Source of the DNA: a phage
Length of the DNA: 64,000 nt
Direction: 5' to 3' (one strand)
Sequence record: PZ151149.1
Within the stretch, counting starts at the first letter, position 1; every line of letters starts with the position of its first letter. Positions 7,641-39,103 of the stretch are shown in pieces. The position numbers and the translations under genes are program-made. The notes beneath the pieces were generated by a model that saw nothing but the letters and a program-made list of their open reading frames with translations, ran no database searches and was not told where the DNA came from.

Positions 7641-8030
7641 TTATTTTGGATCTGGGTATTTGCTGTGTGGCAATTGTAGATGAGGACCATCTTTGAAACT
7701 AGACCAATCCCCACCCCATTCAACAGGAACACCCAATTCTCGACCAGCTTGTTTAAATGCATCAGCGATCATGCGGTAATATTTCATGTTCCATGTATCC
7801 TTATCTTTAGGATACGCTACAACGTCAACCGCGAAACCGTGAAGATGACGAGATTTCATAGTCTTAGATTTACCTTCCGCAACATATTTCTTTTGCGTTT
7901 CTAGACTACGCACACCTTCCGTAATACCAAAATCGACCGGAGTCAGTTCTAATGCACGATGAACGACTTTTACCAGGTCTGGATGTACACCAACAAGCCG
8001 ATCTTTGCTTCTTTGAGATAATTTAAACAT
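7641..8030 (-). CDS. endolysin, L-alanyl-D-glutamate peptidase (peptidase M15 family)
   Basis: SRHLHGFAVDV and WGGDW...GPHLQL zinc-peptidase motifs; 129 aa. Confidence 0.85.
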   Translation of the reverse strand: MFKLSQRSKDRLVGVHPDLVKVVHRALELTPVDFGITEGVRSLETQKKYVAEGKSKTMKSRHLHGFAVDVVAYPKDKDTWNMKYYRMIADAFKQAGRELGVPVEWGGDWSSFKDGPHLQLPHSKYPDPK

Positions 8031-8058
8031 TATTCACCCCCTTTGTGAGTGATAATAT

Positions 8059-8250
8059 TTAGATTCCTGTGATCCTGCATAGAGTTCTTGTATTAGCACC
8101 AATCAGGATCGCATTAACGGCAACCATTCCCCAATCAACCCACGGATTATTATAAATGCTAAATCCGTTTGCTAGGCCAAATACAAGCATTCCGGTACAC
8201 ATACTCAGAGCAATAATCAACATCACGGTAAAACCAAATGCAAATCTCAT
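8059..8250 (-). CDS. small membrane protein
   Basis: 63 aa, two hydrophobic helices. Confidence 0.45.
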   Translation of the reverse strand: MRFAFGFTVMLIIALSMCTGMLVFGLANGFSIYNNPWVDWGMVAVNAILIGANTRTLCRITGI

Positions 8251-8251
8251 A

Positions 8252-8467
8252 TTATTTTCCTTTTCTCTGTTTACGTTTATAAAAGTAATACATTACCTCA
8301 TCGCGTCCGGTGATCCAACATGCTAGGGCGGTAAACAGGTTTACAATTCCCAACACACCTACGGATGCGGCGCTGTCAACAGACATAGGAACAGTAAAGG
8401 CCATAACTAACATAGCAACGCCACAAATGACATTAAGCACCATTATAATAAGACCGAAGAAAACCAT
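8252..8467 (-). CDS. small membrane protein
   Basis: Hydrophobic ORF; start moved to internal Met to abut upstream gene. Confidence 0.45.
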   Translation of the reverse strand: MVFFGLIIMVLNVICGVAMLVMAFTVPMSVDSAASVGVLGIVNLFTALACWITGRDEVMYYFYKRKQRKGK

Positions 8468-8469
8468 TG

Positions 8470-8649
8470 TCAATCCTCCGACACAAGAAAACCAACAATC
8501 ACGCCAGTGATAAGACATGATGCACCGCTAATAAGACAACCCGCGCCAAGTGATTCCCACCATATAAGGGAAGCGACGATAACACAGAGTCCCCAGACTA
8601 CAGCAATCACAACATAGGCAATGGTCGCCCAAAACATATATTTGTTCAT
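8470..8649 (-). CDS. small membrane protein
   Basis: Hydrophobic ORF; ATGA start/stop overlap with upstream gene. Confidence 0.45.
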   Translation of the reverse strand: MNKYMFWATIAYVVIAVVWGLCVIVASLIWWESLGAGCLISGASCLITGVIVGFLVSED

Positions 8650-8834
8650 AATAAATCCCATTCACCAAACAAATAAGAAAAAAGCCATATCAACAGAAAC
8701 GAGGCGATTGATCCAGCAAGCAAAATGATATTAGAGAATCCGCCGTCTATCCAGCCAATCAAACAGAATACGCCAGTATAGAAGCACAACCCCAGCACAA
8801 AGCATACTATAATCAACCATAGATAAAACGCCAT
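8646..8834 (-). CDS. small membrane protein
   Basis: 62 aa hydrophobic ORF. Confidence 0.45.
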   Translation of the reverse strand: MAFYLWLIIVCFVLGLCFYTGVFCLIGWIDGGFSNIILLAGSIASFLLIWLFSYLFGEWDLL

Positions 8835-8895
8835 AGAAAGCCCTCCAGTTAGCTAATTTAGTGCGGGTAGTACATTCCCCTACCCGCTTTGTTAA

Positions 8896-9054
8896 TCAAC
8901 GTAGAGCTTGTTCTAAAGCGATTCCAAACCATCCGCAAACAACACCCATACAGACAGCGACAAGAAGACTCATTCTCTCTTTAGGGATCATTGCAATCAT
9001 AACAACAACCATACAGAAAGCCATTACCATTGCAGTTAACATTTGTTCAATCAT
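8896..9054 (-). CDS. small membrane protein (52 aa, below ORF-track cutoff)
   Basis: Manually translated MIEQMLTAMVMAFCMVVVMIAMIPKERMSLLVAVCMGVVCGWFGIALEQALR; fills gap between flanking genes. Confidence 0.35.
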   Translation of the reverse strand: MIEQMLTAMVMAFCMVVVMIAMIPKERMSLLVAVCMGVVCGWFGIALEQALR

Positions 9055-9056
9055 TA

Positions 9057-9377
9057 TCACACCTTCAAAGTCATAGACGCATAGACATTAATACCAGGCC
9101 AGTTAGGATCGCAATTATACTCAACATCCCATAGATAAAGCGGTTTAGATGTATCAGCCAGGTTTTTAAAATCTTCTACCCACATTTCAAGGCTATATGA
9201 AGGATAAACTAGGCTATCATACCCTCCGTAACGTTGGCCTACTGGTCGGTCAGTAAAGACTACCTCAAGATCCGGTAATTCTTTTTCTAGGATAACCGCC
9301 AGCGCATAAATCAGGCGGTCTTCCTTGTTACGCTGCCGTAGGACCGTTGTCAGTTGGTTCGTCTGGTTCACTAGCAA
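9057..9377 (-). CDS. hypothetical protein
   Basis: 106 aa ORF; 5' end overlaps 9328..9648 by 50 nt in another frame. Confidence 0.45.
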   Translation of the reverse strand: MLVNQTNQLTTVLRQRNKEDRLIYALAVILEKELPDLEVVFTDRPVGQRYGGYDSLVYPSYSLEMWVEDFKNLADTSKPLYLWDVEYNCDPNWPGINVYASMTLKV

Positions 9378-9648
9378 CTACCTCCACATTTTCACAGAAT
9401 GAAATTTTCACAGACACAATTTTACCATAAGTGAAGAATGAATATACATTATCGAGATATTCAACGTCACCTACAATCACATCAAACTGCGGATCAGCAA
9501 CTGCCGCAACATATTCTACCAGTTCATCAAGAGAATGCAACTTAATTTCATCAATTCGGCTGTATTTGGTTGCATCTTTGATCTTAAAACCACGTTCTTT
9601 CAGTTTATCGATCAGAATTTCGCGCGGAGTTTCAAACAGTTTACTCAT
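9328..9648 (-). CDS. hypothetical protein
   Basis: 106 aa ORF. Confidence 0.5.
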   Translation of the reverse strand: MSKLFETPREILIDKLKERGFKIKDATKYSRIDEIKLHSLDELVEYVAAVADPQFDVIVGDVEYLDNVYSFFTYGKIVSVKISFCENVEVVASEPDEPTDNGPTAA

Positions 9649-9666
9649 AATATAATCCTCACACAG

Positions 9667-9867
9667 TTAATCAGTATAGTCAATAATCTTGCACATTACA
9701 ATTGAAAGAACAAAGACCGCAACCCACATATAGATCCCAGCAATCAATGCTACTTCAATATCACAATATCCAAGAAGTACAACAGGAATAAAAACAAACA
9801 TACAGACCAGCGCAATGAAACTAGCATATACGCTCGAAAATATGATGGCACTATTATTAATTTTCAT
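9667..9867 (-). CDS. small membrane protein
   Basis: 66 aa, two hydrophobic helices. Confidence 0.5.
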   Translation of the reverse strand: MKINNSAIIFSSVYASFIALVCMFVFIPVVLLGYCDIEVALIAGIYMWVAVFVLSIVMCKIIDYTD

Positions 9868-9868
9868 A

Positions 9869-10051
9869 TTAACAATCCTCGCGGTTTAAGTCAACTATAA
9901 TTGCATACAGCATAATGAAAACACTAGCAGATCCTAGAATCAATGCACCGTCACATTTTGAAACGCGCTCATCAAAATGTAACATTATCCATCCGAGGAT
10001 GTTAAAGGCGCAGACCGCGCCTATGTTCGCTAACCAATTAATCTTTTTCAT
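9869..10051 (-). CDS. small membrane protein
   Basis: 60 aa hydrophobic ORF. Confidence 0.5.
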   Translation of the reverse strand: MKKINWLANIGAVCAFNILGWIMLHFDERVSKCDGALILGSASVFIMLYAIIVDLNREDC

Positions 10052-10059
10052 AATATACC

Positions 10060-10386
10060 TTAGAAAGAAACAGTTTTCAAGAAATCCAGATTTTCAGTAC
10101 CGAAAACAGAAAAGTAGTGTTTTCCTTTTTCGGTTTTAGAGAAAGCGATTGTCTTCTCTACATGGTGACGGAAGCCAGACAGACGATCACCCAGGTCAAG
10201 GCGGCAAGCGTAAGTAGTGCCGTTTTCGAAAGTAACCTCGATTTGAGTTTTGTCATATTCGCTTTCATAGGCTTTTGCTGCCGCGTCCTGTGCTTTACGC
10301 TCGAAGTCTTCGAAGTGGAATACTTCGTTTGCGTTAGCGAATACAGAAGATTCAGAGAAGATAACTTTAACAGATACTGGTTTCAT
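10060..10386 (-). CDS. hypothetical protein
   Basis: 108 aa ORF with AAGGAG RBS, directly downstream of early promoter 10422..10462. Confidence 0.6.
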   Translation of the reverse strand: MKPVSVKVIFSESSVFANANEVFHFEDFERKAQDAAAKAYESEYDKTQIEVTFENGTTYACRLDLGDRLSGFRHHVEKTIAFSKTEKGKHYFSVFGTENLDFLKTVSF

Positions 10387-10421
10387 TTTGATACTCCTTA
10401 GTAGTTCGTGTTTCGTTTCGA

Positions 10422-10462
10422 TGGGTGTATTATGATATACACCCTATCGTGTGTCAACAACT
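10422..10462 (-). promoter_or_regulatory. early sigma70-type promoter (TTGACA-17-CATAAT) with conserved leader
   Basis: -35 at 10452..10457, -10 at 10429..10434 (reverse complement); palindrome GGGTGTATA..TATACACCC over -10; leader ATCGAAACGAAACAC. Confidence 0.55.
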
Positions 10463-10465
10463 TTT

Positions 10466-10654
10466 TTAGTCTTTTTTCATAATTTCTAGGGCAGTTTCTA
10501 CCGCACCTTTCCAACCTTCCCACATAATGGACATAGTGATGAAGGTAAAGCACCCGCAGGAATCAGCCTTTTTAGAAATAAACCATTCTACAAACTCTTC
10601 GCTCATACCATGCTCTTTAGCGGATTCGCGTAATTGTTCAATTTTGTCTTCCAT
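10466..10654 (-). CDS. hypothetical protein
   Basis: 62 aa ORF. Confidence 0.5.
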   Translation of the reverse strand: MEDKIEQLRESAKEHGMSEEFVEWFISKKADSCGCFTFITMSIMWEGWKGAVETALEIMKKD

Positions 10655-10663
10655 AGTATCACC

Positions 10664-10852
10664 TCAACACTTAACGTTATTCAATCGATTTTGAAAGTAC
10701 ATATAACAAGCATAGTTCTGTTTTGGTTGTACCGTATCAGATAGACACGCTTTTACAGCCTCGCGGTCCGATGGATCTACACCCTCAGCTTTAAGTAATG
10801 CTAAAATCTGGTTATAGCGTACTCTTAGTTGTACTAATGGTTTCTCCCCCAT
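10664..10852 (-). CDS. hypothetical protein
   Basis: 62 aa ORF. Confidence 0.5.
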   Translation of the reverse strand: MGEKPLVQLRVRYNQILALLKAEGVDPSDREAVKACLSDTVQPKQNYACYMYFQNRLNNVKC

Positions 10853-10863
10853 AATATACCCTC

Positions 10864-11091
10864 TTACAGTTGATCAGCAATGTATGCGGTGCATTTGCGG
10901 AGTTTAGCCATAGCACCACCTTTCATGTCGCTTGCGCCTACAATGTTCATGATCTCTAAGCGATCAGCCGGATTCAGTCTAGTAGCCCAGATCTGGTTAG
11001 CCAGTTCCATTTTACCCATCTGCGGTTCCATCTCAAACAGTTCACGCTCAAAGTCGATAATTTCTTTTGCTGCGTCTTTAAAGTTAATCAT
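10864..11091 (-). CDS. hypothetical protein
   Basis: 75 aa ORF with GGGAGA RBS downstream of promoter 11114..11154. Confidence 0.55.
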   Translation of the reverse strand: MINFKDAAKEIIDFERELFEMEPQMGKMELANQIWATRLNPADRLEIMNIVGASDMKGGAMAKLRKCTAYIADQL

Positions 11092-11113
11092 TTTGATTCT
11101 CCCGTTTCGTTGA

Positions 11114-11154
11114 TGGTTGTATTGTAGGGGAGTTATCCTCCCCTGTCAACACTT
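11114..11154 (-). promoter_or_regulatory. early sigma70-type promoter (TTGACA-17-TACAAT)
   Basis: -35 at 11144..11149, -10 at 11121..11126; palindrome AGGGGAG..CTCCCCT adjacent. Confidence 0.45.
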
Positions 11155-11157
11155 TTA

Positions 11158-11343
11158 TCAGAAATATGCAATATAGTTTGCCAGTCCTACAGAGTCATCA
11201 TTCGGCATTGCTTTTACTGCCAGTTCAAACCCTGCTTCAACTTTCTGTTTAGCGGATTCTTCGTTATAACCCCAAATTACCAGAATAGCTACTACGTTTT
11301 CTTTGCTTACTGCTTTCAGTGCTTTAGTGATGCGACGTGCCAT
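11158..11343 (-). CDS. hypothetical protein
   Basis: 61 aa ORF downstream of promoter 11383..11423. Confidence 0.55.
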   Translation of the reverse strand: MARRITKALKAVSKENVVAILVIWGYNEESAKQKVEAGFELAVKAMPNDDSVGLANYIAYF

Positions 11344-11382
11344 AATTTGATTCTCCGTTTAAGAAAGTGTGTTTCGTTTCGA

Positions 11383-11423
11383 TGGGTGTATTATGCTATA
11401 GGCGGGGTCTGGTGTCAACAACT
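11383..11423 (-). promoter_or_regulatory. early sigma70-type promoter (TTGACA-17-CATAAT) with conserved leader
   Basis: -35 at 11413..11418, -10 at 11390..11395; leader ATCGAAACGAAACAC. Confidence 0.55.
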
Positions 11424-11448
11424 TTTTTCAAAAAAATTTAGGCAATAA

Positions 11449-11476
11449 AAAAGCCACTCCGAAGAGTGGCTTATAG
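11449..11476 (-). terminator. intrinsic terminator
   Basis: GCCACTC-TTCG-GAGTGGC hairpin followed by T6 on minus strand. Confidence 0.6.
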
Positions 11477-11621
11477 GGGAAGGTAGCGAATCTTCCTTGT
11501 CTCCAACCTGCTAGCGGCCTAGCAAGTGAATGCTTTAGCGTACCGGATCACCCCATACGCTGCAATAAATGCGGCTAGGTGACGTCCAAATCATTCTAAC
11601 CGCGCTGTCTTTAGTTCACTA

Positions 11622-11840
11622 TTATTTATATCGCTTTCTCTCGCGACGTTTTTGATCTTCTTCCTTGATAGAGTTAAATGCATCAAAAAGACACATGACA
11701 CTGATCAGGAACATAACCGTATTTTCTACGATATCCCACGGCTTCGCATCAGTACAGATCCCCCAAACGGTAAGAAATGCAAATAGTGCAGAAGAGATCA
11801 CAAGCATGATACTTGCTAAGATATAAAAAGTCATCTTCAT
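11622..11840 (-). CDS. small membrane protein
   Basis: 72 aa, hydrophobic N-half, basic C-terminus. Confidence 0.5.
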   Translation of the reverse strand: MKMTFYILASIMLVISSALFAFLTVWGICTDAKPWDIVENTVMFLISVMCLFDAFNSIKEEDQKRRERKRYK

Positions 11841-12019
11841 GGTTTTACCTCAATTCTTCGATATTCATCACACATCCACGCAGTAAGCAAGAATCCCAAC
11901 ACATAAGCAACAAAATACGTTAATGCTTCTTCTGGTTCCGTGCTATGTGTCATCAGTAAACCAGCGAGAACAGTCTTAATAATTACATTTAAAATAATTA
12001 GCCACGCAAATAGTTTCAT
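11837..12019 (-). CDS. small membrane protein
   Basis: 60 aa hydrophobic; ATGA overlap with neighbour. Confidence 0.5.
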   Translation of the reverse strand: MKLFAWLIILNVIIKTVLAGLLMTHSTEPEEALTYFVAYVLGFLLTAWMCDEYRRIEVKP

Positions 12020-12255
12020 CGTTTGCCCAATTTCGGCCGAGTCTTTTCAAACTTATACATTCCGTAACAATCTCGAATCATCCACGTAACAAGAGCACCA
12101 GTCAACACCGACAACACACAGAAGAAGTAAAACGGTCCGGTTGCATTATCAACATGAGCAAGCCATGTAAAGAAAACACATGCTAAGAATGTAAAGAACA
12201 TCATAAAGCACAAGAAAGCGAAATATTTTATACTACTCATAGAGCCACCATACAA
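12016..12255 (-). CDS. small membrane protein
   Basis: 79 aa hydrophobic; alternative start at 12240. Confidence 0.5.
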   Translation of the reverse strand: MYGGSMSSIKYFAFLCFMMFFTFLACVFFTWLAHVDNATGPFYFFCVLSVLTGALVTWMIRDCYGMYKFEKTRPKLGKR

Positions 12256-12343
12256 CAGATCATAAGAAAACCCAACGCAATAAGAATTGCATCAAATTTA
12301 GTGAACTCAGGTCCACCTATCAACATCATTCGTTCCTGTTCAG

Positions 12344-12541
12344 TCATAGATCACAGATCCATCTAACAACACCACATACAGCGATCAGGAGTGTAGGACC
12401 ACTTGAGAAGAAAACCAATGTACAAAAATCATCTAGTGTAATACCGGAATAACTACCGACTGCAATCACACCGATGATCAGACACAGAAAGAAAACAAAT
12501 GCAATCAGAAACAAAGTATTACTAAACAGTTTAGTGATCAT
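12344..12541 (-). CDS. small membrane protein
   Basis: Hydrophobic ORF, start at internal Met of ORF 12344..12586. Confidence 0.4.
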   Translation of the reverse strand: MITKLFSNTLFLIAFVFFLCLIIGVIAVGSYSGITLDDFCTLVFFSSGPTLLIAVCGVVRWICDL

Positions 12542-12734
12542 TAGACACCCCACGACGGTCAATTTCAAAAACTTTCTTATCACCAACGAAGCATGTCACA
12601 ACTGCCTCGTTGACTTCCGCAAATTGTTGTGTTACCCACTTAAGGTCAGATCGAAACAATGTTTTGTTAATAACAAATGTTTTACCGATCTTATCCTTAC
12701 CCATAAATTTTGCGTTAACCATATCCAATTCCAT
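12531..12734 (-). CDS. hypothetical protein
   Basis: 67 aa soluble ORF. Confidence 0.45.
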   Translation of the reverse strand: MELDMVNAKFMGKDKIGKTFVINKTLFRSDLKWVTQQFAEVNEAVVTCFVGDKKVFEIDRRGVSNDH

Positions 12735-12743
12735 ATTATAGCC

Positions 12744-12902
12744 TTATTTGCTAATCGCTAAACCTAATCCGAAGAGAGCACCCGACGCTACAGTATACCC
12801 GAAAGTTTCAAATGCAGTAAAGATATCTAAGCCACCAGCTAACAGAGTTGCAGTAAACAGAGTACCAGCTACGAACATAAAAGTTTTACCGATAAATTTC
12901 AT
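12744..12902 (-). CDS. small membrane protein (52 aa, below ORF-track cutoff)
   Basis: Manually translated MKFIGKTFMFVAGTLFTATLLAGGLDIFTAFETFGYTVASGALFGLGLAISK; AAAGGAGA RBS; downstream of promoter 12927..12967. Confidence 0.4.
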   Translation of the reverse strand: MKFIGKTFMFVAGTLFTATLLAGGLDIFTAFETFGYTVASGALFGLGLAISK

Positions 12903-12926
12903 CTTGATTCTCCTTTCGTTTGTTTG

Positions 12927-12967
12927 TGGGGGTATCTTACTACCCCCGTTTCATGTTGTCAACTGTT
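12927..12967 (-). promoter_or_regulatory. early sigma70-type promoter (TTGACA-17-TAAGAT)
   Basis: -35 at 12957..12962; -10 weaker; same GGGGGTA..TACCCCC palindrome as at 4761..4777. Confidence 0.4.
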
Positions 12968-12968
12968 T

Positions 12969-13346
12969 TTAAGAAAATTTTACTTCGTCTACAATGTCTT
13001 TCATGACATTGATTTCCATTCCGGTCAGAACACGTTGGAACATGTGCTGCACATACGCTTTCAGGTATTCATTTGATGGCTTACTATCGAAAGTCTTTTT
13101 AGTGTAGTAGTCATCACCGAAAGCTACTGTAATTACATTTTCGTCGTCGTTCCAAGCGATATAAGCAAATTTGCCGTTATCCCAGAAGCGAGCACTAATT
13201 GCTACTTTTGTTGAATCGAATCCTACTTCGCTGTGAGATTCAAGAACTACTTGCGTACCAGTTTCTTTATGAATGTAGTAGCGGGATACTAAGTCAAAGT
13301 TACGGGTGTAGTGACATTCGAATTTATCTTTAAACATCATCATCAT
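12969..13346 (-). CDS. hypothetical protein
   Basis: Start at MMMMFKDKF with AGGAGA RBS; upstream part of track ORF overlaps the promoter. Confidence 0.6.
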   Translation of the reverse strand: MMMMFKDKFECHYTRNFDLVSRYYIHKETGTQVVLESHSEVGFDSTKVAISARFWDNGKFAYIAWNDDENVITVAFGDDYYTKKTFDSKPSNEYLKAYVQHMFQRVLTGMEINVMKDIVDEVKFS

Positions 13347-30862: not shown

Positions 30863-31717
30863 ATGGCACAAGTTCCAAAGAAAAGAATAGACACAGGTAC
30901 GGTCGGCAATCCATCGACTGGCGATATCTTATATGATGGCGGTAATAAAATTAACGATAACTTTGATTCAATATATGACGCATTTGCTGATCAACGGTTT
31001 AAAGACGTAGACCACGGCGTAGGAAGAATGGTTATTCATGCAACCGGATACTATCAGAAGCATCCACGTCAAAGCTACTCGGGTTCCGCTGTTGAGATTG
31101 GGAGTCTACACGATATCGATACAACTCAAGGCGCACTTATTGCTATTCTACCTAAAGCAAAGGTCGGAGAGGGTGTTGTATTCATAAATAGTAACGGTAG
31201 CCTTTCAACGACGACACCGCTCAATATTCGAACTCAAGCAGGTGATTCTATTAGCGGTTATTCCGGTGATGCTACAATAACACAACCATTTTCAAAAGTC
31301 ACTGTTTGGTGTACTGCCGTTGAAGGTAGTCGCGTAACATGGCGATTGGGTATCGAAAGTATGTTTACCGATACAACAACGCCAGTAGATAAAACTGTTA
31401 ACGTAACTGGAGTAGCAACAAACGTTGCTATTGCCGCAAAAACAGAATATGTTTCCATCAAATTATTAACTACCGCTAGCAATACATCCGGTTCAAAAAT
31501 GCGTTCAAGTGAAACGCTACTGATGATTGATTCTAAAGCCGGAAAAGTTTATGCGACGGAATATGCAGTTTTGCAGAAGACAGAAGATGAACTATACACG
31601 GTTCGTTATTTCATCGGTTCCGGCGATAAAGTATATGCAGAGTATAAGGCTACTGGCGAAAATATTCGTTTAGCAGTTAAAGCCGTAGACACTATTAAAA
31701 TCGGGGTTGCTACATGA
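30863..31717 (+). CDS. 9: baseplate wedge / long tail fiber socket gp9
   Basis: N-terminus KKRIDTGTVGNPSTGDILYDGGNKINDNFD matches recalled T4 gp9. Confidence 0.9.
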   Translation: MAQVPKKRIDTGTVGNPSTGDILYDGGNKINDNFDSIYDAFADQRFKDVDHGVGRMVIHATGYYQKHPRQSYSGSAVEIGSLHDIDTTQGALIAILPKAKVGEGVVFINSNGSLSTTTPLNIRTQAGDSISGYSGDATITQPFSKVTVWCTAVEGSRVTWRLGIESMFTDTTTPVDKTVNVTGVATNVAIAAKTEYVSIKLLTTASNTSGSKMRSSETLLMIDSKAGKVYATEYAVLQKTEDELYTVRYFIGSGDKVYAEYKATGENIRLAVKAVDTIKIGVAT

Positions 31718-33516
31718 AACAATTAATTAATATCGGTAACGTTGTTGATGACGGTACAGGTGATTATCTAAGAAAAGGCGGTCAAAAGATTAATGACAAC
31801 TTTTCTGAACTTTATACTAAGCTGGGGGATGGTGATATCCCTCACGCATCCGGTGCATGGAAAACGCACACAGATCCATTATTAAAGCCTAATTTTGGTG
31901 ATGCGTGGGCGATTAATACAACGAACAACGCTGTTTCTGTTGAATTGCCTAAAGGAAGCGCGAGTGATTACAATAAAACAATTAAACTTCGTGATGTTTG
32001 GCGCTCATGGGCTGCACATAACGTAACATTGAAGCCAGCACAAGGTGATACCATTAAGGGATCTCCAATCGACCGTGAGTTGTATAAAGATTTTATGGAT
32101 GTTGAACTGGTTTATTGTGCGCCTGGACGTTGGGAATATATCGAAAACAAGCGAGTTGACACGATCACCACGTCTGACCTAAGCACAGTTGCTAAGGAAG
32201 TTTATATTGCAACCGAAGGACAAACAGACTTCCCTAATGTATTTGGTTCTAACACATATAACATTCGAAATGTTGAAGTATATTATCGAGGAAACCTTTT
32301 ATATTATGGCAAGTCTTTTAGTGATGACTCTAACTACGGTTCAATTGGCGAGGATGGATCACTTGTTGAACTTGATGGCAAAAGTATAAAACTTCGTTTT
32401 CCTTGTTCGGCTGGGGATACCGTTCAAATCATCACATATATGGATGGAATTGCGTCTTTCCGTTCTAGTTATATCACACACACAATTAGAGTGTATGATA
32501 CCGGAATGACAGCACTAGAAACTATTCCGGGTGAAGTGTGGGTAGGTGATTTATCGACGAAAAAAGAATTTACCAATGCTGATTTGGGAGTTAGTAAACG
32601 TGATATAATTAACCCAAATTCATTTGAGTTATTAATAAATGGTACTCAAATGATTAAAGCTGGTGATGCTGATCTTCCTTCGTTTGTTTGTGAAGGTGCT
32701 GACGGAGAAACCGAAGAGAGTTGCGCACTTGCTGGCGGTCAGTGGGTACAGTCTGGAGAAGATTATTCACTGGTATTTGATGAGAATAGCATTGTAACAG
32801 GGATTAAATTAGCTAAAGCGTTGGACAATAGAGATACTATAACAATTCGTTGGTTTAATAACGATATCGGAACTCTATTAGAATGGGATGGTGTCGGCGG
32901 AATTAAAGAAAAAGCAGACAAGATTTATCTCAATAACGAAGACGAAGTTAATTTAACAAAACAAATTGAATATACCGACTTCCAGAATCCTAGCCAGAAA
33001 AACACTCGTCCGGCAGAAGAGTATTCAGGTCGAATTATGGATATATATGCACTGTTTGATATTTTCCATCCAATCGGCACGATATACGAAAACGCACATA
33101 ACCCAGCTAACCCAGCGACATATATGGGTATTGGTATCTGGGTTCGGTATGCGGAAGGAGAATTTCTTGCTGGTTGGTCTTCCGATGCCAGCGACCAGAA
33201 TTTTGCATTAAACAATAACGATCTTGATATTCATGGACAACCTACACACACCGCTGGTGGTACTGGTGGTGAAGTTGCCTATCAAATCAAGAAAGATATG
33301 ATTCCTGAATTACAATCCAGCGATCGTGTTTTGGTGAAAGACGATACAGGGTCAATTATCATTGGTGGCTGTCAAGTTGATCCTGATGCGGCAGGTCCAG
33401 CGTTTACGAAATATAGAGAGGATATCGTAAAAGTTAATTCTGGAAATGCTGATCCATCAATGATGGGTATTCTTCCTCCATATCGCACCGTTCATCGCTG
33501 GTTAAGGGTAGGTTAA
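31714..33516 (+). CDS. 10: baseplate wedge subunit and tail pin gp10
   Basis: N-terminus MKQLINIGNVVDDGTGDYLRKGG matches recalled T4 gp10. Confidence 0.9.
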   Translation: MKQLINIGNVVDDGTGDYLRKGGQKINDNFSELYTKLGDGDIPHASGAWKTHTDPLLKPNFGDAWAINTTNNAVSVELPKGSASDYNKTIKLRDVWRSWAAHNVTLKPAQGDTIKGSPIDRELYKDFMDVELVYCAPGRWEYIENKRVDTITTSDLSTVAKEVYIATEGQTDFPNVFGSNTYNIRNVEVYYRGNLLYYGKSFSDDSNYGSIGEDGSLVELDGKSIKLRFPCSAGDTVQIITYMDGIASFRSSYITHTIRVYDTGMTALETIPGEVWVGDLSTKKEFTNADLGVSKRDIINPNSFELLINGTQMIKAGDADLPSFVCEGADGETEESCALAGGQWVQSGEDYSLVFDENSIVTGIKLAKALDNRDTITIRWFNNDIGTLLEWDGVGGIKEKADKIYLNNEDEVNLTKQIEYTDFQNPSQKNTRPAEEYSGRIMDIYALFDIFHPIGTIYENAHNPANPATYMGIGIWVRYAEGEFLAGWSSDASDQNFALNNNDLDIHGQPTHTAGGTGGEVAYQIKKDMIPELQSSDRVLVKDDTGSIIIGGCQVDPDAAGPAFTKYREDIVKVNSGNADPSMMGILPPYRTVHRWLRVG

Positions 33517-33517
33517 T

Positions 33518-34162
33518 ATGATTTCTAAAACACGTTCTAAAGCAAGCGTATTTTCTAGCGACGCAGCATTCATTTCATACGATCCGGGGTCTAAAGACCC
33601 CGTTATTGGCGACATTCGCCCAATTGGTGGATTAAACGTAGACCAATCTCGCAAAGGTTCTTTTATTAACAACGTACAATCAGCCATTGATGATTTGTAT
33701 AGCATTTCTATGCTTAATGTCGGTGATGTATTGGTAACTACAAATTCAACTCCACCGGAAGCGGCGGGACAAATAGAAACTCTTTCTTTCACTGGAACGG
33801 TAACAAATAAACACGATCCAGCCGCGACAAAAGTTGTAATTGAAGTTTTGGGTTATCCATTTGTTGTTAATGTTGGAACATCGAATGTTGCATTATGCGA
33901 AATGGTCACAACAAAATTTACTGAATTGAAAGACAAAAGTATTCTGTTCTCTAAAGTTGAGAGGAAAGGTACTGGCAACGATCAAATAGAGATTCAGTAT
34001 ATTGATTCAAACGCACACGAAGCAACGGTCGTAGAAAAATATGGTATTAGCGTTCGTGGGGAAATAAATTCCCCTGCTCGTTATGGTTATGGTGCATGGT
34101 CCAGATTGGGAACGGAAGAAAAATTTGATTCAACACTATTTTATTTTAAGCGTATTGCGTAA
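33518..34162 (+). CDS. 11: baseplate wedge subunit and tail pin gp11
   Basis: 214 aa; C-terminal region resembles recalled T4 gp11. Confidence 0.88.
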   Translation: MISKTRSKASVFSSDAAFISYDPGSKDPVIGDIRPIGGLNVDQSRKGSFINNVQSAIDDLYSISMLNVGDVLVTTNSTPPEAAGQIETLSFTGTVTNKHDPAATKVVIEVLGYPFVVNVGTSNVALCEMVTTKFTELKDKSILFSKVERKGTGNDQIEIQYIDSNAHEATVVEKYGISVRGEINSPARYGYGAWSRLGTEEKFDSTLFYFKRIA

Positions 34163-34173
34163 GGTGTAAAATT

Positions 34174-35577
34174 ATGAATAACACTATTAATCACGTAAAA
34201 GACGATGCACAGTATGTTAAGTTTGACCCTACCGGAAATTGGCCTAGCAATATAAAAAACGTACAAGCGGCATTAGCCGCTATTCAGGGATTTGCTATTG
34301 CAGGTCTTCCAACGGCAACCGAAGAAACAGCGGGTATTGCTGAAATTGCTACTCAACAAGAAGTAGATGATGGGTTGGATGGAACTAAAATTGTTACCCC
34401 CAAAACATTGGCTGTTAAGCTGTCAAGACCGGACGCAACAAAACTTGCCAAAGGGATCACTCGCTATGCTAATAACGATGAAGCTATGGGCGATACTCCA
34501 AATATTGCAATTGGTCCTGATACATTAACCCATGTATTCGAGAATAAGAAAGCAACGGAAACCGTACAGGGTACAATTAAAATCTGTTCTATGGATGCTG
34601 CAAAAATTGGTAGTGATGACACTATGGCAGTAACGCCTAAAAAGATGCACGCTGCTATTGCTCAGATTGTTCCTGGGTTGATTCCAGAACAAAACACGGC
34701 GACCGAGTCCCGTGAGGGTTTAGTTAGACTGGCGACAAGCCAACAAACGCTTGCTGGTACTATCAGAGAAGGATTTGCCGTTAGTCCATATGCATTTTCC
34801 AACGCAAGAGCCAATGAAAATCAGGCGGGTACGGTTAAAATTGCCTCATCCCAACAAATGATTGACGGTAATGACAACACAGTAGTAGTATCAGCACAAA
34901 AATTTGCGAACACTAAAGCAACCACTGGACAATTCGGTGTTGTTAAGCTAACAGATAACCCAGGATCAGGCGAGGCAAACGCAGCACTGTCGGCAAATGC
35001 TCGTGTATTGCCTCTAAGTGGTGGTGTCGTTACTGGCGATGTGTATCGTCATAGTGGAGGCGACGGAAACCAGTTTATCATTAAAAATGAACTGGATGGT
35101 CTTTGTATGCCTATTGGTGGCATCATTCTTACAGCATTTAACAGTTTCGACCACGCACAATTCAAAATCTGCAACGGTCAATGGTTAAATAAACACCAAT
35201 ATCCAGTATTATTTTCACGAATCGGTTTCACTTACGGCGGAGATGGCGGAGACAACTTTGCTCTACCAGATATGCGAGGGCTTGTTGCTAGAGGATGCGA
35301 CCACGGTCGAGGACTAGACCCAGGTCGCGGATTTGGTACTTATCAAGACGACACCATGCAACATATGACAGGTAACTTCCCTGTAGCTAACCGTTGGCGC
35401 GGTTGGACTGGTGGTGTATTTGCCATCACAGGCGGTCAATGGAGCACGAACTATAAAAACGGTGGTGGTGATGATTGGGGTAGTATTGTTAACTTTGACA
35501 GCGCAAGACAGGTTAGAACGTCTGGCGAAACTCGCGTTAAAAGCCTTGCATTAAACTACATGATAAGGGTACAATAA
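34174..35577 (+). CDS. 12: short tail fiber gp12
   Basis: 467 aa, position between 11 and wac. Confidence 0.85.
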   Translation: MNNTINHVKDDAQYVKFDPTGNWPSNIKNVQAALAAIQGFAIAGLPTATEETAGIAEIATQQEVDDGLDGTKIVTPKTLAVKLSRPDATKLAKGITRYANNDEAMGDTPNIAIGPDTLTHVFENKKATETVQGTIKICSMDAAKIGSDDTMAVTPKKMHAAIAQIVPGLIPEQNTATESREGLVRLATSQQTLAGTIREGFAVSPYAFSNARANENQAGTVKIASSQQMIDGNDNTVVVSAQKFANTKATTGQFGVVKLTDNPGSGEANAALSANARVLPLSGGVVTGDVYRHSGGDGNQFIIKNELDGLCMPIGGIILTAFNSFDHAQFKICNGQWLNKHQYPVLFSRIGFTYGGDGGDNFALPDMRGLVARGCDHGRGLDPGRGFGTYQDDTMQHMTGNFPVANRWRGWTGGVFAITGGQWSTNYKNGGGDDWGSIVNFDSARQVRTSGETRVKSLALNYMIRVQ

Positions 35578-37346
35578 TGATCGAACAGTTAAACATTCGA
35601 AAGATCCCTAACGTCGATGGTGTCCCTGGAGAGGGACAGCATTCTATTAGCTGGATTAAAAATGGTGAATGTCTAAGCGCAGCAACCACAGAAACAGGAC
35701 ACGAGGGGACGCTTAACCGCGCCCCTTATGCTATTCAAGAAAATATTGTTCGTCTGGATGAAAATTCTAAGACAACGGTAACAAAAGTTAACGAAGTTGT
35801 TACCGCAGTTAATGATATTAAAACTACTTTAGGCGCGGTTTCTGATGGTAGTATTATTGATATTGTCAATCAAACTATTGCAAAGGTTGAGTCTGTAGAA
35901 GAAAATTTAGGAGAAACTTCAAGGACATTACAAACCACAGTAGATGAACTGGCGGAGACAGGAAAGAAAATTGGTGTTCGTCCGGCAGCAGATCCGAGTA
36001 CACGAACAATATATGATGATATTTCTTTCATCAAACAAGAATTGGGCGCTTTCCCTAACTTCAATATCAACGGTTATCCAGATCCAGGTAGTTCCGGTTC
36101 CGGTATCAAATATCGAGTTATCCAGAATACGGAAGCATTAAACAACCACGGTCAGCGAATCCTCCAACTAGAAAACGACTGGCAAGATTCTGACGTTGGA
36201 GAGCTAACAAAACAAGTTAACAAAATGCGAAGCGAGCTAGGCGATACATCACTAGCAACACAGGACAATGTTTATCTTCGTCTTCGCACAAATACTCGCA
36301 ATATCGCTAGTATATCAAACGAAGTTCAGGAAGTAAAGAAAGCGATTCTATTTGAATCAATTCCTGATATCGGGACTAAAGTAACTAAGCTACAATCTGA
36401 TTATACACAGCTTAATGATGAAGTCAACGGCGTTGACGCTGGTATCCGTCCTCGTTTAACTCTTCTGGAAAATACGATTGGCAGTCCTCAAGCCGCTGGA
36501 AGTATTGATTATCGATTGACTAATCAAGAACGGGAATTTGTAGATCTTAAATCTATTGTCGGTGTTAGTGGTGCTGATGGTCTACGTGGTGAGGTTGCAC
36601 GAATCTCTAACACAGTTGGTACTGATAGTGAGCGTCATACTATCGCAGGTCGTCTAAAAATTGTAGAAAACACACAGGGACGACTAGAAGCTAGCGTACA
36701 GGATATCGAGCAAATGATCGGCGATCGAGATTCCGGTCTAACCGCTGGGGTTATTAAGCTGTCAAGCGACATGTACGGCAATCCAGAAGGAAGCACGCAG
36801 CTTGAACAAGATGGGATCGTGAAAACTGTTAAGGAATTGAGCACATCAAATGCAAGCAAGGTAACAGACGTTCCTGATGATGGTTTCCATTATCTACGTA
36901 AGCACGGGGAATGGGTTCAGGTCGCATGGGCGGCTGGTGCATTTAAAAACACCGCTCAGATTGATATTACTCTCGACGGACAAGATCAATACAAAGGAAT
37001 CCCGCTAAACGATATGACCGAAGAAGTTCCTGCGCGTGGAATGGTTAAGAGCGAATCTCTTGTTACGGTTAACGACAAAGGCTTATTCCGTTGTGATTTC
37101 CGTTGTTCTGTAAATGCGGCACATAACGCTACTTTCGTAGTCGGTATTGCTAAAAATGGTCTGATTGTACATGAGGTACGAAATGGTCATTATGGACCTG
37201 ATGATTTAATTAGCTATTCTACCAGTGCTTTCCTAAATATTGAAAAGGGCGACCGGATCGATATTCGCATTAAGGGCGTATCCGAAGAAGCATTAGCGCA
37301 ACAGCTACAAATTAAAGAGTTCCTCTTTGGAATTTCTCCGGTATAA
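35577..37346 (+). CDS. wac: fibritin (whisker, wac) with additional C-terminal domain
   Basis: Coiled-coil body; foldon-like DVPDDGFHYLRKHGEWVQV followed by about 130 extra residues. Confidence 0.8.
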   Translation: MIEQLNIRKIPNVDGVPGEGQHSISWIKNGECLSAATTETGHEGTLNRAPYAIQENIVRLDENSKTTVTKVNEVVTAVNDIKTTLGAVSDGSIIDIVNQTIAKVESVEENLGETSRTLQTTVDELAETGKKIGVRPAADPSTRTIYDDISFIKQELGAFPNFNINGYPDPGSSGSGIKYRVIQNTEALNNHGQRILQLENDWQDSDVGELTKQVNKMRSELGDTSLATQDNVYLRLRTNTRNIASISNEVQEVKKAILFESIPDIGTKVTKLQSDYTQLNDEVNGVDAGIRPRLTLLENTIGSPQAAGSIDYRLTNQEREFVDLKSIVGVSGADGLRGEVARISNTVGTDSERHTIAGRLKIVENTQGRLEASVQDIEQMIGDRDSGLTAGVIKLSSDMYGNPEGSTQLEQDGIVKTVKELSTSNASKVTDVPDDGFHYLRKHGEWVQVAWAAGAFKNTAQIDITLDGQDQYKGIPLNDMTEEVPARGMVKSESLVTVNDKGLFRCDFRCSVNAAHNATFVVGIAKNGLIVHEVRNGHYGPDDLISYSTSAFLNIEKGDRIDIRIKGVSEEALAQQLQIKEFLFGISPV

Positions 37347-37353
37347 GAAATTA

Positions 37354-37374
37354 AAGGGGCGTTAAGCCCCTTTT
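37354..37374 (+). terminator. intrinsic terminator after wac
   Basis: GGGGC-GTTAA-GCCCC hairpin plus TTTT. Confidence 0.5.
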
Positions 37375-37392: not shown

Positions 37393-38325
37393 ATGTCAGG
37401 ATATGTAACCAATAACCCAAGAGAATTAAAAGACGCTATTCTGCGTCGTTTAGGCGCACCAGTAATTAACGTAGAAGTCACAGAAGACCAGATTTACGAT
37501 TGTATTCAGAGAGCACTAGAACTCTATGGGGAATATCATTTCGATGGTGTGAATAAAGGATATAAAGTATTTCGTGTTAGTGCAGAGCAAGCTCAACACG
37601 GGGTATTCGATTTAAGCGATTCTGGTGTATTCGCAGTAACTAAAATAATTCGAACAAACGTAGGTAGCGCGGCTACGATGGATGGCACTGCCGTTTATCC
37701 GTGGTTTACTGACTTTCTGTTGGGTTTAGCGGGTGTAAATGGCGGTTTAGGATCTGGCTGTAGTAAATTTTATGGTCCAAATGCAATGGGCGGTGATCTG
37801 GGATATTTCGAACAGCTTATGAGCTATCGCGCAACTATGCAAAATATGCTCAATCCGCTTCCAGATTATTGGTATAATAGCGCAAACGGACAACTTAAGA
37901 TTACAGGAAACTTCCGAGAAGGTGATCTCATTGTTGTTGAATTATATGTTAAAAGCTATATAGACGTTCCTGATATGATCGGTGCGGTTGCTGGTTATGC
38001 TCATGCGGGAGGATGTTCTACCGCTGGCGGGATTAGCGCCGTTTATGATAACCCAACTGCTGGTTTAAGCGGGATTGTTGCTGGCATGGGACCGATCCGT
38101 GATAACAAGCAGGGCGCATATAATAACCGTTGGGTTAAAGACTGCGCGACCGCGTTTACTCGTGAGCTATGGGGGCAGATCTTAGCTAAACATCAAGGGT
38201 TGCAATTACCAGGTGGTGTAACAGTTGATGGTGTCAGAATCATCGAAGAAGCACGCGCCGACATTGAGAAATTGCGACAAGAACTACTTGACTTAGATCC
38301 ACCATTTGGTATACTAATGATTTGA
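37393..38325 (+). CDS. 13: neck protein gp13
   Basis: 310 aa, T4 order and size. Confidence 0.85.
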
Positions 38326-38362
38326 TTTATTGGGGGGAGTATTCCCCCATTTGGAGTAACAT

Positions 38363-39103
38363 ATGTTTAACAACACTCTTTTTGCTCGCCTTGAATCGCA
38401 AAAGGATTATGAGAATACACGACAAACCGAGATTCTTAATCCTTACGTGAACTTTCACAAATATACAAATACTCAGACGTTAGCCGACGTTATGGTCGCC
38501 GAAGCTATTCAGATGCGAGGTGTAGAATTATATTACATCCCTCGTGAATTTGTCAAACCAGACATGATCTTTGGTGAGGATGTTCAGAGCAAATTTACTA
38601 AAGCATGGAAATTTGCGGCCTATATTAATTCATTTGATGGTTATGAAGGTGTTGGTAATTTCTTCTCTAGTTTCGGTTATCAAGCCAATGATGAACTAAC
38701 TTTTACGGTTAACCCCAACCTATTCAAGCATCAAGTAGATGGAAACGAGCCGAAAGCGGGTGATTTGATTTATATTCCTATGAGTAATGATTTATTTGAA
38801 ATCAATTACTTAGAGCCATATCAGCCGTTTTTTCAGGCTGGCAAAAATGCCATGCGTAAAATCATTGCAGAGAAATTCGTGTATAGCGGTGAGGAATTGC
38901 GACCAGAATTACAACGCAACGAGGGAATCAACGTTGATGAGTTCGCGGATCTGGATCTTGCACCGATCACTAATCTGGACGGGTTAACAGATATCAACTT
39001 AGATCAGTACAAAGAAGATAAGCAATTCAGAAGCGAAGGACAAGATTTTATTGACCCGTTTGATCCTATTAATGGCAAGGGTTCACCTTTCGCCGATTTT
39101 TGA
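38363..39103 (+). CDS. 14: neck protein gp14
   Basis: 246 aa, T4 order and size. Confidence 0.85.

Follow-up and report, generated by a model that had tools for sequence, protein, structure and literature searches.

Fibritin belongs to the device that times tail-fibre deployment in T4-type phages; in T4 the neck whisker is known to handle that phage's own long tail fibres. The C-terminus of fibritin is also the textbook minimal trimerisation unit. A fibritin that runs on well beyond its foldon raises the question of what the additional domain is and what a whisker might do with it. One such gene lies in the 64,000-nucleotide stretch of DNA analysed here (the window), which comes from a Krischvirus, an RB49/JSE-like coliphage. 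Its product can be divided as follows.

35577..37346, plus strand: wac (fibritin, neck whisker), from the open reading frame call, PHROG 1056 and identity with phage JSE
35577..35726, plus strand: N-terminal neck-attachment domain, residues 1-50, from alignment to 1ox3 and 2ibl, N-terminal pieces of T4 fibritin
35727..36857, plus strand: T4-colinear segmented coiled-coil shaft, residues 51-427, from the 2bsg alignment and Pfam Fibritin_C
36858..36923, plus strand: foldon-like beta-hairpin, residues 428-449, KVTDVPDDGFHYLRKHGEWVQV, from T4 alignment, PDB profile, shuffles and models
36933..37343, plus strand: predicted C1q/TNF/BclA-like jelly-roll head, residues 453-589 (137 residues)

The reading frame encodes 589 amino acids before its stop, shares 99.2% nucleotide identity with wac of phage JSE and matches PHROG 1056, 'fibritin neck whisker', from residue 1 to residue 581 (E 1e-180). 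It is flanked by gene 12, for the short tail fibre, and gene 13, for the neck, its start codon overlapping the gp12 stop (TAATG), with homologues of gp10, gp11 and gp12 upstream and of gp13 and gp14 downstream, a gene order identical to that of RB49. Positions 6-436 of T4 fibritin (2bsg, 487 amino acids) align to residues 7-431 with an E-value of 2e-52, and the T4 fragments 1ox3 and 2ibl align to residues 7-84 (E about 2e-14), so that N-terminal domain and segmented coiled coil are colinear with the T4 protein (1aa0, 1rfo, 2bsg). The neck-attachment domain has a dN/dS of 0.03-0.09. Pfam Fibritin_C covers residues 368-450, corresponding to profile positions 2-91 of 93, at 86 bits against a cut-off of 21.

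T4 fibritin ends at its foldon; the first-pass annotation had proposed that here a foldon-like segment is followed by a further domain rich in strands, quoting two strings that we located at residues 431-449 and 504-528, and both the fibritin assignment and the arrangement held up. The T4 foldon aligns to residues 425-449, and 10 of the 19 residues of VTDVPDDGFHYLRKHGEWV (429-447) are identical to the T4 segment IPEAPRDGQAYVRKDGEWV. The Smith-Waterman score of 59 compares with 23.9 +/- 3.6 in 2000 shuffles, none of which reached it (Gumbel p 2.6e-6). The key T4 residues are kept (Pro, Asp-Gly, Tyr, Arg-Lys, Gly-Glu-Trp-Val), forming the pattern P-x-D-G-x-x-Y-x-R-K-x-G-E-W-V. When a profile of the C-terminal region was searched against the PDB, it returned foldon-bearing chains only, always at identical positions and with individually marginal E-values (0.004-0.9) over this short segment; the head had no sequence match in that search. 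The hairpin appears in both the single-sequence and the alignment-based predictions, with strands at 439-442 and 445-448 and a foldon pLDDT of only about 60 in the latter. Across eight Krischvirus fibritins the motif is invariant, and it is the best-conserved segment of wac, with 90.6% amino-acid identity between deep alleles whose dS exceeds 1 (saturated). Judged from these alignments, the foldon hairpin in RB49-type fibritin has been kept, not replaced. We did not find its retention described in the literature searched, where Letarov 2005 is represented through a review.

Beyond the aligned valine, 142 residues remain in the window protein (after Val447) against 10 in T4 (after Val477), which gives the net extension of about 130 residues that the annotation had estimated. 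Where T4 has its LLSTFL tail, the window protein has a QVAWAAG linker leading into the 137-residue head, which is joined to the hairpin by the three residues AWA. It could be argued that the foldon match arose by chance, or that the extension comes from fusion or misassembly of a downstream reading frame, given how short the foldon segment is and how marginal the single PDB matches are. But the match falls, in colinear order, where a T4 alignment of 430 residues ends; it far exceeds the shuffles and lies within the Fibritin_C profile, which runs through the foldon. Moreover, the 589-residue frame is intact and of equal length in 58 phage genomes and under purifying selection, and the architecture is maintained at 29-31% identity in two further lineages, with Serratia phage 92A1 at 31%. 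An artefact of either kind, to which we give almost no credence, is effectively refuted.

What kind of domain is the head? An AF2 model of the monomer, built from a 13-sequence alignment, predicts a compact C1q/TNF-like jelly-roll beta-sandwich of about 130 residues, which is the fold that had been suggested at first reading; it supersedes a single-sequence AF2 model of residues 411-589, unusable at a mean pLDDT of 47.5. Its structural neighbours include C1q, TNF-ligand, BclA, collagen NC1 and phage-fibre proteins, and TNF-like lectins likewise match. The nearest phage folds are receptor-binding or carbohydrate-binding heads: the short-tail-fibre CBD of A-1(L) (8ke9), the A4 tail fibre (9k09), PRD1 P5, the receptor-binding domain of TM4 gp23 and the receptor-binding protein of lactococcal phage 1358 with bound GlcNAc. 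In those phages the heads are carried by tail or vertex fibres and serve host binding, whereas the window head is carried by a neck whisker.

Sequence on its own adds independent support for this fold, at a fainter level. BclA_C matches six of ten heads (best E 2.7e-7) and C1q three of ten, all below the Pfam gathering thresholds (BclA_C: window head 17.4 bits, best relative 27.9, cut-off 38; C1q: 16 versus 23.7), and the head is thus filed as a fold-level relative and not as a Pfam member. There is also a weak NCBIfam match to the C-terminal domain of Gly-Xaa-Xaa repeat proteins. Identity to the BclA C-terminal domain, to Bacillus exosporium ExsFA/BxpB and to C1q/TNF heads is 9-19%, and the stalks differ, being collagen in BclA/C1q-type proteins and an alpha-helical coiled coil with a foldon here. 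Because the fold is recognisable and common to spore-surface proteins and phage receptor-binding heads, the head has a plausible origin. Literature searches combining fibritin with C1q, or RB49 with fibritin, returned no description of a C1q-like fold for fibritin.

By its sequence, the window protein belongs to a variant catalogued since 2005 as 'RB49-type' fibritin, in which the C-terminal domain is expanded (Letarov 2005, via Letarov & Krisch 2013, PMC3797505). It shares protein family, architecture and gene 12/13 location with RB49 gpwac, and the two 589-residue proteins align without gaps over their full length at 78% identity (76% over the last 139 residues). The alleles differ: the window carries the JSE type, identical to JSE over those 139 residues, and synonymous divergence from the RB49 allele is deep (dS 0.9-2.4). 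An internal foldon sets the protein apart from strict T4-type, foldon-terminated fibritins. A precedent for a foldon away from the extreme C-terminus is JS98, which has two foldon motifs and a spacer (PMC3797505); there, the first foldon is followed by a coiled-coil spacer and the second foldon, whereas in the window it is followed by the predicted jelly-roll. All examined fibritins are trimers, and only those of T4 and JS98 fold by the foldon motif alone; in other types a foldon by itself does not suffice for trimerisation (PMC3797505). The RB49-type C-terminus has been labelled 'alien' or 'unrelated to T4' (PMC3797505 among others). Our analysis refines this view of an alien replacement, with the foldon hairpin kept and a C1q/TNF-like head, as modelled, stacked on top of it; what goes beyond the catalogued type is limited to the assigned fold and the retention of the foldon, and no new kind of system is revealed.

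A phmmer search of the head against 1.84 billion representatives found only two fibritins, an RB49-type representative and the more distant P0004, in addition to P0005, a 696-residue protein with six repeats that we rejected as a head homologue, judging the match to be compositional or repeat-driven. Searching with the last 159 residues yielded only two 110-residue fragment frames, and relatives were gathered with the full-length query; an alignment of ten heads shows no conserved stretch, a seven-sequence head alignment found only three IMG/VR loci, and a tblastn search of phage genomes with the P0021 C-terminus gave no match. Within the genus, deep head alleles are exchanged by recombination, and in wac of ECD7 and Makalu_002 an RB49-like sequence switches to a window/JSE-like one inside the following zone.

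36977..37076, plus strand: approximate crossover zone in the head, from sliding-window nucleotide identity

How such a head might work is suggested by its fold neighbours. The C1q, TNF-ligand, BclA, collagen NC1 and phage-fibre proteins are known trimers, several of which cap fibrous stalks at the C-terminus, and in BclA, C1q and the collagen VIII/X NC1 domains C-terminal heads nucleate the trimer. We think it probable that the window gene encodes an RB49-type gpwac whose head doubles as a trimeric C-terminal folding nucleus and a distal whisker knob. Its modules run from neck-binding domain through segmented coiled-coil shaft, T4-homologous foldon hairpin and three-residue linker to the 137-residue predicted jelly-roll, which most likely assembles with threefold symmetry on the shaft axis. 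This head would itself act as the nucleus for trimerisation and registration, from which the shaft zips up, and would form a knob at the end of each whisker or collar fibre. Because the model is of a monomer, we infer that three heads come together and stack coaxially on the foldon, the threefold assembly being suggested by the trimeric shaft and by the trimeric state of C1q, TNF ligands and BclA. According to PMC3797505, RB49 fibritin forms trimers, and its folding and trimerisation need sequences of the expanded C-terminal domain.

Should the knob have a partner, we favour one within the phage over the host: the long tail fibre, at either its enlarged gp36 or its gp35 knee. An enlarged gp36 (496 amino acids) accompanies this architecture both in Krischvirus and in the distant phage 92A1, the extra part in RB49 or JSE spanning roughly 340 residues; the co-occurrence fits the published covariance of wac and gp36 C-termini. 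Within Krischvirus, a test for head/gp36 covariation was negative: in ECD7 the head is of the JSE type but gp36 of the RB49 type (99.8% identical), which shows that the two sets of alleles do not covary. These mixed alleles weaken the idea of a long-tail-fibre partner, as does the position of the contact in T4, which a preprint places not at the C-terminal tip but between shaft helix alpha11 (361-386) and the gp35 kneecap. The equivalent helix in the window is as follows.

36642..36719, plus strand: counterpart of helix alpha11 in the T4 whisker, residues 356-381, from residue mapping in the T4 alignment

The preprint's four contact residues, N377, Q380, N381 and Q383, correspond to A372, Q375, D376 and E378, all invariant in eight Krischvirus fibritins, and RB49 gp35 has an ILEI-like signature, as in the T4 kneecap; by homology, the helix may dock into gp35 in the window phage too. 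We had considered this helix as an island of conservation and dropped the idea, as its inter-allele amino-acid identity (76-79%) does not exceed the shaft's.

Two other readings compete with our preferred one. The head could be a cap for folding and stability only, with no ligand of its own, leaving all control of the long tail fibres to the alpha11 equivalent and gp35. The T4 contact site, the four invariant residues, the shared gp35 signature and the absent head/gp36 covariation within the genus all fit such a cap, as does the requirement of the expanded domain for folding (PMC3797505). Yet T4 manages with a 27-residue foldon, which makes a conserved head of 137 residues a costly replacement; conserved polar and aromatic motifs in surface loops (HNAT 516-519, NGHYG 536-540) suggest a partner, and head and enlarged gp36 travel together across distant lineages. 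We regard a cap without a ligand as quite unlikely.

Alternatively, whisker and collar fibres may carry the C1q/TNF-like knob as an accessory lectin or adhesin. Reversible binding to glycans on the host surface, or to another ligand from the environment, would then supplement the tail-fibre system with recognition at the neck or with a sensor. By analogy, the first-pass annotation's idea of a distal module whose binding changes host recognition or the function of the whisker is plausible: the nearest phage folds and the matching lectins are of this kind, the deep head alleles are swapped by recombination, the two loop motifs are conserved, and for AehI, a different fibritin type, Letarov & Krisch proposed a role in host recognition (PMC3797505). 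However, in RB49-like phages host range and O-antigen recognition map to gp38. The head has a dN/dS of 0.08-0.18, which points to purifying selection, and contains no hypervariable loops; its variability peaks in its N-terminal third and not at any well-marked tip. In cyanophage A-1(L), moreover, the neck fibre has a carbohydrate-binding module at its distal end that failed to bind the host. The need for the expanded domain in folding and trimerisation, the assignment of host range to gp38 and the purifying selection together argue against a role in host recognition, and we consider the adhesin reading, and with it host glycan binding by the knob, unlikely.

The retained foldon and the modelled head give cryo-EM and mutagenesis of RB49-like phages, themselves therapy candidates, a definite structural hypothesis to work from. 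At its most far-reaching, up to twelve neck-borne C1q/TNF-like trimers in Krischvirus-like phages could bind host or environmental glycans or dock on the enlarged gp36, a prospect we consider unlikely. If docking on gp36 did occur, the switch for fibre retraction would be built differently from the alpha11-gp35 contact of T4; and if the knob binds a ligand, the retained, decaying foldon would record that a C-terminal module was appended, not swapped in.

One further element borders the gene, just past the wac stop codon and ahead of gene 13.

37353..37373, strand unassigned: G+C-rich stem-loop, AAAGGGGC-GTTAA-GCCCCTTT, from the scanner

The scanner called it terminator-like on the minus strand, and its T-run on the plus strand is borderline.

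The fibritin gene of this phage encodes 589 residues and sits among neighbours homologous to T4 baseplate and neck genes, which are arranged in the T4 order:

31714-33516, gp10 homologue, upstream of wac
33518-34162, gp11 homologue, upstream of wac
34174-35577, gp12 homologue, upstream of wac
35577-37346, plus strand, wac (fibritin)
37353-37373, G+C-rich stem-loop with a perfect 8-bp stem, between the wac stop and gene 13
37393-38325, gp13 homologue, downstream of wac
38363-39103, gp14 homologue, downstream of wac

The start codon of wac and the stop codon of gp12 overlap (TAATG), and the stem-loop was called terminator-like on the minus strand, with a borderline T-run on the plus strand. PHROG 1056, 'fibritin neck whisker', matches residues 1-581 of the protein (E 1e-180); this profile is 582 positions long and so describes the extended form of fibritin. 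The first-pass annotation had proposed that a foldon-like stretch here is followed by an extra domain, and alignment with T4 fibritin (PDB 2bsg, 487 aa) confirms this arrangement. Residues 7-431 are colinear with the T4 protein (E 2e-52); the counterpart of the T4 foldon falls at residues 425-449, an internal position rather than the C-terminal end; and the Pfam Fibritin_C match ends at residue 450, covering profile positions 2-91 of 93. Beyond Val447 there are 142 residues, compared with 10 beyond the equivalent Val477 of T4. Where T4 fibritin has the tail LLSTFL after its hairpin, the protein studied here instead has QVAWAAG, running directly into the next domain.

Several comparisons indicate that the foldon-like segment is homologous to the T4 foldon and exclude a chance match. 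Residues 429-447 (VTDVPDDGFHYLRKHGEWV) share 10 of 19 positions with the T4 foldon (IPEAPRDGQAYVRKDGEWV), including Pro, Asp-Gly, Tyr, Arg-Lys and Gly-Glu-Trp-Val. Local alignment of the 27-residue foldon to the protein scores 59 (Gumbel p 2.6e-6), against a mean of 23.9 +/- 3.6 and a maximum of 44 in 2000 shuffles. A profile built from the last 169 residues matched foldon-bearing chains only in the PDB, always at profile positions 9-29, and both structure predictions place a beta-hairpin at this segment. It is unchanged in all eight Krischvirus fibritins aligned and is the best-conserved part of the protein: alleles that are saturated at synonymous sites still share 90.6% of its amino acids.

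The extension itself is, by sequence, nearly an orphan. Across 50,697 phage genomes, tblastn found it in 58 Krischvirus records only (74-100% identity), and IMG/VR yielded just three loci that carry it. A phmmer search of 1.84 billion representative proteins returned RB49-type fibritins and a single more distant fibritin, P0004 (591 aa; 29% identity over the head, residues 453-589). Among ten heads compared with Pfam, six weakly matched BclA_C (best E 2.7e-7) and three C1q, in each case below the gathering threshold, as was the match of the head studied here (E 0.0043); by these thresholds the head belongs to no Pfam family. NCBIfam gave a weak match to the C-terminal domain of Gly-Xaa-Xaa repeat proteins. 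Separately, PF28231.1 appears only in the precomputed Pfam annotation of the four closest fibritin clusters (P0006-P0009) and was not among the matches from our local Pfam run on fibritin clusters.

AlphaFold2 reached a pLDDT of 47.5 from the single sequence and a mean of 83.5 with a 13-sequence alignment (about 90 across residues 451-589), with four of the five models from the alignment in agreement; the model is an all-beta sandwich. Foldseek matched this model in the PDB to BxpB and ExsFA (E about 1e-6), 4-1BBL, the phi812 spike knob and C1QL, and in the BFVD viral models to many phage fibre and collagen-repeat proteins with the same head at their end. The extension is thus predicted to be a C1q/TNF/BclA-like jelly-roll head, related at the level of fold, in line with the initial guess of a C1q/TNF-like fold. 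C1q/TNF-like heads are widespread on phage fibres, and this one adds a further member to the class. BFVD also contains a free-standing 159-aa protein with the same predicted fold, A0A1J0MHA5 of the T4-like Klebsiella phage KPV15 (TM 0.73-0.77 and 22% identity to the head).

C1q, TNF-ligand, BclA, collagen NC1 and phage-fibre proteins, all of which appear among the neighbours of the model, are trimers, and several are C-terminal heads of trimeric stalks. By analogy, the reading with most support is of a head that would act as the C-terminal nucleus for fibritin trimerisation and registration and would form the distal knob of the whisker, because its neighbours are trimeric, only three residues separate hairpin and head in the model, and folding depends on the expanded domain according to reviewed biochemistry. 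Such a knob may contact the long tail fibre of the phage itself. RB49 gp36 is long (496 aa), and Krischvirus and Serratia phage 92A1 alike pair a long gp36 with the head, a co-occurrence compatible with the published covariance of wac and gp36. However, according to a 2026 preprint on T4, the whisker touches the fibre through shaft helix alpha11 (361-386), which sits in a groove of the gp35 kneecap, and not through the foldon, and the counterparts of four alpha11 contact residues (A372, Q375, D376 and E378) are invariant in Krischvirus. Moreover, in phages ECD7 and Makalu_002 the head is of the JSE type and gp36 of the RB49 type (99.8% and 98.0% identity to RB49 gp36, respectively), so that within the genus there is no covariation between head alleles and gp36 alleles. 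In RB49, gene 35 (L008:4814-5953) encodes a protein with a weak ILEI-domain match, as in the T4 kneecap, and gene 36 (L008:6157-7647) one that resembles T4 gp36 only at residues 57-154, about 340 of its residues having no Pfam or PDB sequence match. A putative role in binding host or glycan would follow from analogy to the structural neighbours, but host range maps to gp38 and our dN/dS analysis detected no diversifying selection on the head.

The extra domain is an already catalogued fibritin variant, the 'RB49 type' being one of eight C-terminal variants listed by Letarov & Krisch 2013 (PMC3797505). The biochemistry given there indicates that foldon motifs alone suffice for folding only in the T4 and JS98 fibritins, and that RB49-type fibritin requires its expanded C-terminal domain; Efimov et al. 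2022 (PMC9569957) repeat the statement that RB49-like Wac and its T4 counterpart have unrelated C-terminal moieties. The literature searched contained no description of a C1q-like fold for fibritin. The existence of the domain was known; that the foldon is kept, and which fold the head adopts, refine that picture.

Related fibritins bear on how this architecture arose. That of Serratia phage 92A1 (Straboviridae, outside Krischvirus) is colinear with ours (591 aa, 31% identity) and has the same architecture with a degenerate foldon (NPDDQFYYVRQGDRWVQI); the metagenomic fibritins P0004 and P0021 share this architecture, with foldon motifs that are eroded further. This pattern fits a scenario in which the head was appended to a foldon-terminated ancestor and the foldon then became less critical. 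Two further database proteins, P0001 and P0002, are gene calls confined to the C-terminal 110 residues of the head, starting at an internal Met. P0001 is probably truncated, its contig being 927 bp long; P0002 (110 aa) comes from a 50,312-bp contig, so wac there may contain an interruption or a frameshift.

The phage is a Krischvirus, and in this genus wac stands out as an island of deep alleles. The gene is 99.2% identical to that of phage JSE, and the protein is 78% identical to that of RB49. Between the window and RB49, wac has a dS of 0.9-2.4 and 51-84% nucleotide identity per 100 nt, and for gene 13, directly downstream, the same phages show 97-100% identity. The cause may be balancing selection or the maintenance of old alleles by recombination. 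Every part of the gene is under purifying selection:

dN/dS of wac by region
N-terminal domain: 0.03-0.09
Shaft: 0.085-0.10
Foldon: about 0.065
Head: 0.08-0.18

Residues 385-427 vary more than any other stretch of the protein. Within the head, variation is greatest in the first third (459-500), and loop motifs HNAT (516-519), NG (527-528) and NGHYG (536-540) and the strand at 559-567 are conserved.

The distal two-thirds of the head have been swapped recently by homologous exchange between Krischvirus lineages. In ECD7 and Makalu_002, wac nucleotides 1-1400 are 98-100% identical to RB49, and the last ~300 are 99-100% identical to the JSE-type sequence of the window (stretch compared, 36977-37346, or wac nucleotides about 1400-1770); about the last 170 nucleotides of JK32 wac match the window at 96-98%. 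In ECD7, KFS-EC and Makalu_002, genes 13 and 14 are separated by a gene for a seg-type homing endonuclease, which is absent from the window (38326-38362), RB49, JK32, SSG23 and UPWr_E1; this gene may be connected with the recombination tract nearby in wac. The window as a whole has no tRNA genes, and at 8030-12970 some 25 small ORFs (45-108 aa) follow one another on the minus strand, as is typical of a T4-like early region.
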